From positions 64,001 through 128,000 of IMG/VR virus record IMGVR_UViG_3300045988_155520: 64,000 bases of DNA. One strand, 5' to 3'. The notes beneath the pieces were generated by a model that had not been told where the DNA came from, ran no database searches, and worked only from the letters and a program-made list of their open reading frames with translations. Both the position numbers and the translations under genes were made by a program. Numbering within the stretch: position 1 is the first letter of the stretch; every line of letters begins with the position of its first letter. The stretch is from a virus. Below are positions 43,480 to 45,848 of the stretch, piece by piece.

Positions 43480-44895
43480 CTATCTTTCTATAACAATTAT
43501 TTCTTCGTCTGCAATTTCATCAAGCGGACTTTCTGGAGAACTATCACCATCAATCACTGTATCAGGGTCAAAACCATGTAATATAACTTTAGAATCTTGA
43601 TAAAGGTCATCCCTTGTTATCTCTACAGTAATTTCATCCTCTTTATAAAAGTTAATTTCTTTACCGTCTAAAGCCATAGTTTCACCATTTATCTTCAATA
43701 CCATATCATATACGTTTTCTGTTTCTACAGTGTCTAATATCATGTCTGTATCAATGGTAAAACTTTCAGAACTATCACATGCATCAATATTGATTACAAA
43801 ACTTAGTTTCTTATTATAATACTTCTCTATTTCTTCTTCCTTGTCGCAACATTCATCTTCTGTATTACAAATTTTTACACAAGTATTTATATCTTTAAAT
43901 TTATTAGTAGGTATTTCTGGTTCACACGTTATTCCATTTGTTTCTGAGTCATCATATGTTATAATTCTCTCTCTATCTGTCATACGTGTATTATCATCTT
44001 TCATGGCATGTGAAAAACCATTAGATGAATTATCTGAATTAGGTCTATTGTCCATTTCGCTATCTGACATTCTTGATGATTTTATTTTGGATATGTTTTC
44101 ATCAAAGGTGTCAATAATACCACCGCCAGTATTACTTACCGCTACATCATCGAATGAACGCATAATGAATCTTGATGGTAAATGTTTAACATCAAAGTCC
44201 TCTGAACGAATGATATACGCTTTTAATTTTATTTTAAACGTCTGTGAATAATACTTTCTATCATCTATAGTGTATTCTGACTCATCAGATATATCTTCAA
44301 GTGTTATTGGCATAGGATGACCATTTGGAAAAATATAACTCTGTATACTTTGAAATTCATAATGTATTAATTCATTCATACGGTTAAGAAGTTCATACTT
44401 GTTACATACTATTCCGACCATATAATCAAAGTTAACTGCAAACGGTTGTTTCATCGTATACATATCATAGGCTTCAGTTCCATTTTCCTGAAGTACTGGT
44501 TCATAGAAAACTGCATAATCTCTATGCCCTGGTATATTCATATAAGGTCCTTGACTCTCACCCTTCTGTGGGTTAGGAGCACGTGTTATAGTTTTGAAAT
44601 TAAGTACAATACTACCAGATTCATCTAAATATTTCCATGTTTGTGAATATTCACTTATTCTTTGGCTACTATATAACTTATATGTTGGTAATTTCTTACC
44701 ATCATAAACTATATCTAATTTTTTGTCAACCCATTCAAAAAATTCTTGGTCTATATCTTCATATCCCACTGGCTTTGGCAATGGAGTTCCATGTTCAAGA
44801 ATCACTTTAGACATATTCCTGCGCTTTTCAACACCATATGAATTATGTCTAAGTTTCATTTTATTAATAAATGGTTTAGGTTGTATAAGTGCCAT
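43480..44895 (-). CDS. Virion protein candidate (possible tail completion / sheath stabiliser by position), 471 aa
   Basis: Long ORF just upstream of the sheath gene in the neck/tail block, with an acidic Cys-rich C-terminal half. The functional call rests on position only. Confidence 0.3.
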   Translation of the reverse strand: MALIQPKPFINKMKLRHNSYGVEKRRNMSKVILEHGTPLPKPVGYEDIDQEFFEWVDKKLDIVYDGKKLPTYKLYSSQRISEYSQTWKYLDESGSIVLNFKTITRAPNPQKGESQGPYMNIPGHRDYAVFYEPVLQENGTEAYDMYTMKQPFAVNFDYMVGIVCNKYELLNRMNELIHYEFQSIQSYIFPNGHPMPITLEDISDESEYTIDDRKYYSQTFKIKLKAYIIRSEDFDVKHLPSRFIMRSFDDVAVSNTGGGIIDTFDENISKIKSSRMSDSEMDNRPNSDNSSNGFSHAMKDDNTRMTDRERIITYDDSETNGITCEPEIPTNKFKDINTCVKICNTEDECCDKEEEIEKYYNKKLSFVINIDACDSSESFTIDTDMILDTVETENVYDMVLKINGETMALDGKEINFYKEDEITVEITRDDLYQDSKVILHGFDPDTVIDGDSSPESPLDEIADEEIIVIER

Positions 44896-45848
44896 TATTT
44901 TTTCTCCTTTTTTGTAATGTTAATATCTTTGTCATTGAAGATAACATATATGTCGAAGCCTTGTTCATCATGTGCTATTAGTCCTGTGTACCCTATTTTG
45001 TTTAAAAAAGCACTTGCTTCTTTATCACTACCTAATATACTTGAAATTGTACCATAGATGCTACCTTCATCCTGACATTGTGTTATATATATGCATTCCT
45101 CATCCCAAAATTCTTGTTCGCATCCTTGATATGCTTCTTTTCCATACTCATCCTCTGTTGTATAATACTTGAAGAACTTTCTTGCAATACTCATACTTTC
45201 TCTTTTAGAAGGAGTTTTGTCATATGTCAGGAATTTATTACCAGAAATTTCAGCATGATAAATAATACCACCTCTTGCATATTCCTTGGCACATTCTTCA
45301 GATGTTGTGAAATACAGTCCATAACCAAATGCTTGATTTCCCCATCCGCTATTAAGATATTTCAAATCAAATTTATCAAAATCCTTGAAACTACCATGCA
45401 TTAAGTTAACTTCATTATTTAAGTTCTCAATCAATACATTTATAGTATTTAAACGTTCTTTTAAATTGCGTTTAGAGGCTTTATTTTCATACTTTAATGT
45501 ATTTGGATTATCACTATCTAATAAGTCCTGAGAAGCCCTTGAAATACCCTTATTCCAACCGCTATATTTAGGGTCTAAGGTTTTTTCTTTATGTTTAACT
45601 ACCCTTTTTGTTTTTTGTTTCTCTTTTTCTTGTTGTATCATTTGGTTAAGAGTATATCTATTTCTGTAAACTTCTTCAAAAGCAGCTTCTGACCACCTAT
45701 AATACTGATTTTTAACAAATCCTTTAGAATATAAGAATTTATCAATAATCTTAGGTGGAAACGTACCCCAACCATATTGTCTTAGCAATGAAGATATTTC
45801 ATTACTTGTTTTTTGTTTGAAATAATATTTTGAATCTTCCTTAATCAT
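44895..45848 (-). CDS. PARP-like (H-Y-x) ADP-ribosyltransferase domain protein candidate
   Basis: LMHGSFKDFDKFDLKYLNSGWGNQAFGYGLYFTTSEECAKEYA matches the PARP/diphtheria-clade pattern (HGS....I...GF.......G..fG.GiYF......S..Ya). His is codon 151 (nt 45396-45398) and Tyr is codon 179 (nt 45312-45314). The C-terminal GYTGLIAHDEQGFDIYVIFNDKDI is like the Glu strand but has Ile/Asp where the catalytic Glu is expected. Confidence 0.4.
   Translation of the reverse strand: MIKEDSKYYFKQKTSNEISSLLRQYGWGTFPPKIIDKFLYSKGFVKNQYYRWSEAAFEEVYRNRYTLNQMIQQEKEKQKTKRVVKHKEKTLDPKYSGWNKGISRASQDLLDSDNPNTLKYENKASKRNLKERLNTINVLIENLNNEVNLMHGSFKDFDKFDLKYLNSGWGNQAFGYGLYFTTSEECAKEYARGGIIYHAEISGNKFLTYDKTPSKRESMSIARKFFKYYTTEDEYGKEAYQGCEQEFWDEECIYITQCQDEGSIYGTISSILGSDKEASAFLNKIGYTGLIAHDEQGFDIYVIFNDKDINITKKEKK

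Follow-up and report, generated by a model that had tools for sequence, protein, structure and literature searches.

The ART-PolyVal family (Pfam PF18760; 'N4-ART', Tox-ART-HYD2-related) comprises ADP-ribosyltransferase (ART) domains known from the polyvalent proteins of phages and conjugative elements, which have 1,000-7,000 amino acids (aa) (PMC5512222). Both the family and the idea that its members are packaged effectors have been published before, in 2017 and 2022 (PMC5512222, PMC9503650). Here, we describe a stand-alone gene of this kind in a 64,000-nucleotide stretch of DNA from a very large uncultured phage, positions 64,001-128,000 of IMGVR_UViG_3300045988_155520. This whole stretch is called the window, and all coordinates are window positions. 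The gene lies on the minus strand beside a tail-terminator gene and almost certainly encodes an ART-PolyVal domain, which places its product in the phage and conjugative-element branch of the ARTs that resemble diphtheria toxin and poly(ADP-ribose) polymerase (PARP), the H-Y-x ARTs. By homology and fold, it is an ordinary further member of an already described family, and it reveals no new kind of system. Its novelties are modest: an N-terminal module, a fixed slot beside the tail terminator, and Ile at the catalytic position.

The protein has a small N-terminal domain, a disordered linker and the ART-PolyVal domain, which are encoded as follows:

44895..45848, minus strand: the whole ART gene, 317 aa, with an ATG start and a TAA stop at 44895-44897 (open reading frame list, translation and reading of the DNA)
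45588..45818, minus strand: N-terminal domain, aa 11-87, predicted by AlphaFold2 (AF2) with a predicted local distance difference test score (pLDDT) of ~90
45414..45587, minus strand: linker, aa 88-145, with a K/E-rich part predicted to be disordered and a helix leading into strand 1
44898..45413, minus strand: ART-PolyVal catalytic domain, aa 146-317, delimited by Pfam, the AF2 model, Foldseek and a profile alignment with PARP12
44997..45224, minus strand: helical insert between strands 4 and 3 of that domain, aa 209-284, with helices at 215-284 in the model

A preliminary description, made from the letters of the window alone, had placed an open reading frame at 44895-45848, where one of 317 aa does exist, on the minus strand. 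The plus-strand frame over these positions is not open and is full of stops. Its numbering of His151 and Tyr179 agrees with the translation, and the three motifs it quoted are all present: LMHGS (aa 149-153), GYGLYFTTSEECAKEYA (aa 175-191) and GFDIYVIFND (aa 297-306). It had given 27 residues as the gap between LMHGS and GYGLYF; the count is 21. In a regular-expression scan of all six frames, the motif pair was unique in the 64-kb window. A chance motif was ruled out by Pfam, homologue, Foldseek and profile matches far beyond chance.

In the Pfam search, aa 149-309 matched positions 9-130 of the 140-position ART-PolyVal model (E=1.3e-6, 29.7 bits), and a weaker match (E=1.3e-3) was to DUF3990, which belongs to the same ART clan. 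A search of ~5.8 billion proteins returned 100 relatives. Four of these are full length and 72-95% identical, and the remainder cover the C-terminal 54% of the protein at 45-57% identity. Almost all of the 100 carry a precomputed PF18760 match, including P0001, which is 95% identical. When a family profile was run exhaustively against 1.84 billion cluster representatives, 18,569 matched at E<=1e-3 and 10,937 at E<=1e-10. Many of the matched proteins have 2,000-7,000 aa and contain as many as 15 matched stretches each; these are the giant multi-domain 'polyvalent proteins' in which the family was defined (PMC5512222). Their ART domains carry every motif of the window protein, helical insert included: HG[ST], G[YW]GxY[FL]T, a second Tyr, the YGTxSSxLGSDKE insert, GYxG[IL] and N/I-Y-V-I-F. 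Comparison of the ART protein with 50,697 phage records by tblastn gave a single weak match, and a search of PDB sequences with the full-length protein gave chance matches only (guanylate kinase, E ~0.6).

The window protein shares sequence family, fold and phage origin with ART-PolyVal, and its gene accompanies virion genes, an arrangement that those who defined the family report for many members. It differs in being a 317-aa stand-alone protein with a private N-terminal module, not fused to the MuF, metallopeptidase or virion RNA polymerase domains of the polyvalent proteins. Its gene lies beside a tail terminator rather than head genes, and it has Ile at the catalytic position, where most relatives have Asn.

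The AF2 model, built on 85 sequences, gives the ART domain the split beta-sheet fold of ARTs. pLDDT is above 90 across most of aa 146-317, and six strands follow in ART order (b1 149-153, b2 178-181, b3 195-201, b4 289-293, b5 299-303, b6 309-316). With Foldseek, the best match among the predicted viral structures of BFVD was 'PolyVal ADP-Ribosyltransferase [Myoviridae sp.]' (E=5.6e-16, TM 0.79, 33% identity). There were 48 BFVD matches at E<=1e-3, mostly labelled ART-PolyVal-like, and they show that solo versions are common among annotated family members and already annotated in myoviruses. In the PDB, a 1071-residue chain from the pre-ejectosome of cyanophage A4 ranked first (E=2.8e-4, probability 1.0), ahead of 6KYF, the anti-CRISPR protein AcrIF11 (E=4.9e-3). 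Further PDB matches were tankyrase 1/2, the MbcT toxin, PARP13, PARP12 (E ~0.1), PARP1, cholix, and PE-like and RES toxins; Foldseek probabilities for the AcrIF11, tankyrase, PARP and toxin folds ranged from 0.5 to 1.0. The preliminary description had called an ART/PARP fold and had proposed structure prediction with a Foldseek search as a check. This check has now been run; it returned an ART/PARP topology, and both the model and the matches agree with the call.

The residues of the putative active site were located in the 85-sequence alignment, in which gaps lower some denominators:

45396..45398, minus strand: codon of His151 (HGS motif), the NAD-binding His of the H-Y-x triad, in 84/84 sequences; aligns with the His of PARP12 FHGT
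45312..45314, minus strand: codon of Tyr179 (GYGLYF), the first Tyr of the triad, in 84/84 sequences; aligns with the Tyr of PARP12 GSYFA
45279-45281, minus strand: codon of Tyr190, the second Tyr, 11 residues after Tyr179, in 84/85 sequences; aligns with PARP12 HHYSK
44949..44951, minus strand: codon of Ile300, at the position of the PARP catalytic Glu, located by column counts, the PARP12 alignment and the start of strand 5 at aa 299

In addition, G152 is kept in 83 sequences, and position 153 is invariably S or T. In the model, H151 lies inside strand 149-153 and Y179 inside strand 178-181; His on strand 1 and Tyr on strand 2 is the family criterion of Iyer et al. (2017). As read from the alignment, the residues expected to bind nicotinamide adenine dinucleotide (NAD+), His151, Gly152, Ser153, Tyr179 and Tyr190, are intact. 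Strand 5 reads D299-I300-Y301-V302-I303. Position 300 is Asn in 69/85 sequences and Ile in 10/85, and an acidic residue (Asp or Glu) at 299, here Asp299, is confined to the window clade. No catalytic Glu, Asp or Gln stands at the start of strand 5, where Ile300 is found, which puts the protein with the H-Y-I/L subset, unlike the H-Y-E enzymes.

The position of Ile300 was established by comparison with human PARP12. The full family profile aligned PARP12 only over the N-terminal half of the domain (E=0.064), because the long helical insert breaks the HMMER alignment. The insert was therefore spliced out of the profile as an alignment device before the PDB was searched again, and the insert-free profile aligned PARP12 (2pqf_A) end to end at a modest E=0.008. 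The aligned pairs, window family first, are lyhGs/LFHGTS, yGyGvyl/YGKGSYF, eaakeYsk/AYSHHYSK and kNYVIFn/SIFVIFE. With the chain offset, we take the Ile of SIFVIFE to be Ile660, the third member of the PARP12 H-Y-I triad. Ile300 aligns with it and therefore sits at the catalytic-Glu position, which bears out the earlier suggestion of an H-Y-x enzyme with a hydrophobic residue in place of the catalytic Glu. The ART fold, the His of HG[ST], both Tyr and the aliphatic residue at the catalytic-Glu position are thus shared with PARP12 and the other H-Y-I/L PARPs residue for residue; strand 5 is DIYVIFN in the window protein and SIFVIFE in PARP12. The similarity is distant, however; the window protein has none of the accessory domains of PARPs, and its long helical insert has no counterpart in them. 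A PARP proper was considered and rejected, since the protein does not fall in Pfam PARP and shows distant similarity only.

PARP12 and other H-Y-I/L PARPs are active mono-ARTs. By analogy, a conserved NAD pocket without an acidic catalytic residue would fit mono-ADP-ribosyl transfer of their kind, and conservation suggests that the window protein is probably an active enzyme. The missing Glu, Asp or Gln, with Ile here and Asn in most relatives, would also suit an ART fold that has lost catalysis and either just binds NAD+ or ADP-ribose or serves purely in the structure or assembly of the neck. Coupling of the gene to a structural gene fits this, and PARP13, an inactive PARP, is among the fold matches. 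However, PARP13 has lost its His, and H-Y-I/L PARPs with the same arrangement as the window protein are active. The His, the Gly-Ser/Thr and both Tyr are effectively invariant in the 85 sequences, and even distant giant proteins share the first three motifs; a fold that had lost its ligand chemistry would not be expected to keep them. The occurrence of the domain in multi-copy arrays within polyvalent effectors also suits an enzyme better than a mere building block. We consider a dead fold very improbable.

For the action of a solo phage ART from the diphtheria-like clade, the best model with experimental tests behind it is AcrIF11 (6KYF; PMC12421852), an anti-CRISPR protein of phages and plasmids. 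Like the window protein, it is a small phage-borne ART in which a variable helical region separates the two halves of the sheet. Its activity depends on Asp115 (PMC12421852), and no equivalent acid was identified in the window protein. AcrIF11 sits in anti-CRISPR loci with aca genes, whereas the window ART lies in a tail operon. Membership of the AcrIF11 family (NF052490) was rejected, as the NCBIfam score is 14.1 bits against a cut-off of 50 (E=0.065); the relation is one of fold only.

The helical region of AcrIF11 has been proposed to recognise its target (PMC12421852), and by analogy the helical insert of the window protein (~75 aa) is a probable target-recognition surface. Its motifs YGTISSxLGSDKE and EFWxxEC are kept in relatives and in the giant polyvalent proteins. 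Two cysteines of the insert, aa 252 and 258 (EC...C motif; 45075..45095), are conserved in 73/85 and 52/85 relatives, respectively. Glu251 in the insert is conserved in 78/85 relatives and might reach the active site.

The preliminary description had likened the protein to T4 Alt. The analogy holds as functional logic, in that the proposed product is likewise a late-made, myovirus-carried enzyme that would modify host proteins on entry. It does not hold as kinship, since T4 Alt is head-targeted and belongs to the R-S-E clade (Alt/VIP2), which differs from that of the window ART (PMC5512222). A homologue of Alt was rejected: the window protein has HGS and GxGxY motifs and no R/STS/ExE pattern, and searches of Pfam, PHROG and NCBIfam found no Alt-type family.

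The best solved-structure match, the A4 pre-ejectosome protein (9K3A chain B; PMC12002296), has been physically seen inside the capsid. It is a giant podovirus ejection protein, unlike the 317-aa window ART. A pre-ejectosome protein of an Anabaena phage was also inspected:

L017, NC_024358, 20116-25269: Anabaena phage A-4L gp27, residues ~1420-1600 reading LYHGT...GSGTYFS...GVDAL...TLVINPD

These residues form an ART-PolyVal-like pattern and are probably the region matched by Foldseek in 9K3A chain B. When A4 gp26-gp29 were compared with the ART profile, HMMER gave no significant match and global hhalign gave nothing; local hhalign was marginal (E=1.1e-3, probability 20%). The pre-ejectosome section of the A4 cryogenic electron microscopy (cryo-EM) paper names no ART domain (PMC12002296).

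In the model, the N-terminal domain has helices at 15-24, 32-41 and 54-62 and a long helix at 64-87, and aa 51 is the sole strand or bridge residue by DSSP. It is possibly helix-turn-helix (HTH)-like, and it is possibly a carrier or docking module. The domain occurs at the same place in most relatives of 280-325 aa; that of the window clade is divergent (hhalign against the other relatives, E=1.8e-4, probability 49%). Pfam gave nothing significant for it, with weak HTH hints of which the best was HTH_33 (E=0.0024 in 2/21 members). The N-domain profile found nothing real in the PDB, where the top match, a designed repeat protein, is an artefact. A search with this profile for other architectures found N-domain-only proteins alone and no other fusions. 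The linker that follows has pLDDT below 50 for aa 85-125 and 139-145 and carries a conserved short motif (DPKYSGWNKGIS...), seen in the alignments.

In bovine-rumen contigs, the same locus holds 112-aa proteins that lack an ART and consist of the N-domain, the linker motif and one short helix:

L012 7001-7339 and L013 7001-7339: N-domain-only genes, at the syntenic place upstream of the tail terminator

Neither of the genes adjoining the N-domain-only gene in L012 proved to be an ART. One cluster of N-domain-only proteins is labelled by NCBI as coming from a Bacteroidaceae metagenome-assembled genome. The converse case, a 204-aa ART without the N-domain, occupies the same place in L010. Both halves thus occur alone at the locus, which suggests that the N-domain is a separable module.

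If the N-domain were a winged helix, it could bring the ART to phage or host DNA or RNA, so that bases or phosphate ends would be modified in the manner of DarT or of PARP10/11/15/TRPT1. H-Y-hydrophobic PARPs do modify nucleic-acid ends, and the three short helices and single strand or bridge residue of the model, together with the weak HTH-family matches, point the same way. These hints are not significant, however, and the PDB profile search found nothing real. The ART also occurs without the N-domain at the same locus and in thousands of other architectures, and the closest characterised folds (AcrIF11, tankyrase, PARP12, cholix; MbcT and RES toxins) act on proteins or small molecules. No DarT match turned up. 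We regard modification of nucleic acids through such a domain as very improbable.

The genes around the ART bear on how it is expressed and, possibly, carried:

43480..44895, minus strand: gp15-like tail terminator, 471 aa (AF2 model and Foldseek)
43169..43474, minus strand: 101-aa gene between the terminator and the sheath
39519..43022, minus strand: tail sheath, 1167 aa (phrog_23, E=2.1e-53; tblastn to sheath genes of T4-like phages)
36535..37023, minus strand: tail tube, gp19-like (phrog_4542, E=4.2e-27; Pfam Phage_T4_gp19, E=1.5e-5)
45853..46395, minus strand: upstream 180-aa gene in the same leftward gene string
46399..47109, minus strand: upstream 236-aa gene in the same leftward string, matching only phrog_4301 (unknown function)
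47212..49203, plus strand: SNF2 ATPase
50264..50743, plus strand: SprT-like metallopeptidase (Pfam, E=8.6e-12)

By sequence, the 471-aa protein has no match in PHROG, Pfam, NCBIfam or the PDB, either as a single sequence or as a profile. By structure, Foldseek matched it to a 272-residue chain of the T4 portal-neck-tail complex (E=1.7e-8), to the P1 tail (2.4e-8), to T4 gp15 (4hud/4huh, ~3e-5) and to many further proteins of tail terminators and necks, which identifies it as a gp15-like tail terminator. At least 770 homologues exist, at ~50% identity and on contigs of up to 413 kb. The terminator is enlarged by a disordered middle and a C-terminal beta domain and is a core gene of the phage clade. 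Downstream of it follow the 101-aa gene, the sheath, a homing endonuclease, the tube and baseplate genes. The sheath is unusually long, with just its C-terminal ~500 aa matching sheath families; the sheaths of relatives have 1133-1334 aa. It is less than 34% identical to that of any cultured phage, and the phage is without a close cultured relative. The preliminary description had put the ART directly upstream of a gene in the tail-completion position and then the sheath, and the Foldseek and phrog_23 matches agree. It had also set the gene between virion genes. This is right for the downstream side, with the terminator, the 101-aa gene and the sheath; upstream, the 180-aa and 236-aa genes have no recognisable function, as their products have no match in Pfam, the PDB or NCBIfam. 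Beyond these two genes lies a divergent block with the SNF2 helicase, the SprT-like protein and DNA polymerase B. A like-sized pair (249 and 180 aa) stands divergently beside an SNF2 helicase gene in L014; it was matched to the window pair by size.

Read from the DNA, the stop of the ART gene overlaps the ATG of the terminator (TAATG), and no terminator-like site or hairpin was found within 42900-47400. The overlap and this lack of a terminator-like site argue for co-expression of the ART with the tail genes. A TAATG-type overlap also occurs in L001-L003 and L010. The order divergent polB, ART, terminator, ~100-aa gene, sheath recurs in L004 (387 kb), L007 (422 kb), L009, L010 (144 kb) and L016 (90 kb), with extra genes interposed at some of these loci, and the ARTs there are only ~40-57% identical. 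In L004, the terminator is 48% identical to that of the window and the ART 41%. In L010, a sheath-sized 1140-aa gene directly follows the terminator, with no recorded sheath match. Genes of 89-110 aa stand just upstream of the sheath in L001, L007, L009, L012, L015 and L016 (101, 110, 103, 110, 89 and 110 aa) and were matched by size and place alone. At four terminator loci, L012-L015, no ART motif occurs in the 6-7 kb around the terminator gene. Some relatives thus have the ART while others lack it, which makes it accessory; its preferred slot is ahead of the genes for terminator and sheath. The clade that carries it consists of large myoviruses and has rumen-associated relatives.

On balance, we lean towards an explanation in which this ART-PolyVal mono-ART is made with the neck and tail proteins, carried in the virion and active in the next host. 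The protein would bind NAD+ and attach one ADP-ribose to a macromolecule of the host, most probably a protein. As it lacks a catalytic acid, the substrate would have to assist catalysis, as it does in H-Y-I/L PARPs, and the helical insert would supply target recognition, as proposed for AcrIF11. After production alongside neck and tail proteins, the ART would probably travel in the virion by means of its N-terminal module and linker and enter the next host with the DNA, there to inactivate a defence or redirect host machinery. Virion carriage itself, taken on its own and by analogy with relatives, is a plausible but somewhat doubtful step. At the level of the family, three findings support packaging: relatives of the domain lie inside genes for 'internal virion protein/transglycosylase/structural protein' in Burkholderia and Ralstonia podophages, a MuF fusion is among the BFVD Foldseek matches, and the top PDB match is a protein seen by cryo-EM inside the capsid. 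Iyer et al. predicted virion delivery for the family and noted an enrichment of phage ARTs in myoviruses, at sites adjoining morphogenesis genes (PMC5512222, PMC9503650).

Alternatively, the same enzyme could remain unpackaged. It would be made in the infected cell, either late or from the intergenic region between the divergent polymerase and tail genes, and would ADP-ribosylate a host protein of defence or housekeeping, in the way that AcrIF11 modifies Cas8f or T4 ModA/ModB modify RNA polymerase; its position beside the tail genes would then be meaningless. AcrIF11, one of the nearest solved folds, acts inside the cell (PMC12421852) and, in NCBIfam, is matched weakly but end to end. Accessory presence and absence is typical of anti-defence genes. 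However, the stop-start overlap in the window and in its relatives and the lack of terminator-like sites favour co-expression with the terminator, the slot is kept though the ARTs have diverged so far, and the carrier-like N-terminal module survives alone at the locus. We consider action of an unpackaged enzyme unlikely, though it deserves to be taken seriously.

Several observations weigh against a packaged ART-PolyVal enzyme, and some of them would suit the unpackaged one. The PF18760 score is 1.5 bits short of the curated gathering cut-off (29.7 vs 31.2 bits). The published ART-PolyVal triad is H-Y-D, with the Asp in strand 5 (PMC5512222). The catalytic position is Ile in the window protein and Asn in most relatives, and the published Asp could not be mapped: position 305 is N here, D in 33/85 and otherwise N, K or S. 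Although ART-PolyVal domains abound in phages and conjugative elements, no biochemical test of any member was found in the literature searched, and because of this we infer ART activity from conservation alone. The window ART has no MuF, portal or capsid-targeting fusion, and its packaging and injection are steps that we purely infer. Two short family members lie in unrelated, non-structural neighbourhoods, among early-looking small genes or nucleotide-metabolism genes. In L004, L007, L009 and L010, the ART is the first gene after the divergent polB, and therefore an early promoter could serve it. A promoter scan was uninformative, with 39 sites against 31 expected from shuffled sequence.

A variant of the packaged explanation is that the N-domain and linker form a docking module for the neck or tail terminator, with the ART riding in the neck/tail channel and not in the head, or that the enzyme ADP-ribosylates a virion component or nucleic acid instead. 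It is suggested by the survival of the N-domain alone at the locus and by the translational coupling of the gene to the terminator, and we consider it improbable. If true, carriage in the neck/tail channel would be a new delivery route for a myovirus effector.

Whether ART-PolyVal enzymes travel in the particle, and what they modify, could be asked with the window ART. As a 317-aa stand-alone protein with a clean active-site signature, it should be easier to express than the giant polyvalent proteins. The ART and the gp15-like terminator also fill in two genes of a poorly annotated phage lineage.

Some minor observations were made on the surrounding genes. The ART, the SNF2 ATPase and the SprT-like metallopeptidase correspond to hub domains of polyvalent proteins, here as separate genes within 6 kb (44895..50743); the set could be a dispersed polyvalent effector set, or a coincidence. 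By eye, the 236-aa protein shows GSGSSRMVF...VLKLAK and MVILDDGF, which resemble the Gly-loop/Lys and DFG of kinases and are reminiscent of the truncated kinases of polyvalent proteins. A kinase was rejected, being without Pfam support even at E<=10. TnpB-type genes (OrfB_IS605/Cas12f1-like) lie between the terminator and the sheath in L004 (12630-13787, 15367-16998) and past the sheath in L015 (12026-13162). Besides its ART-PolyVal gene, L016 has another gene of the ART superfamily (PTS_2-RNA, KptA/Tpt1 type; 13187-13398), located just past the sheath.

Elsewhere in the window, a 2380-aa tail-module protein (15814..22956, minus strand) has a phage tail lysozyme domain at aa 1675-1820 and a C-terminal GDSL lipase/esterase domain, and the neighbouring 1992-aa protein (23309..29287) has no recognisable domain. 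The load of selfish elements is heavy (1639..4515, minus; 4686..6920, minus; 35215..35730, minus; 37157..39061, plus). It includes a Hint/intein domain in the anaerobic ribonucleotide reductase NrdD, a LAGLIDADG domain in a DnaB-like helicase, and HNH/DUF723 homing endonuclease genes that interrupt the stretch from sheath to tube. NrdD points to an anaerobic host.

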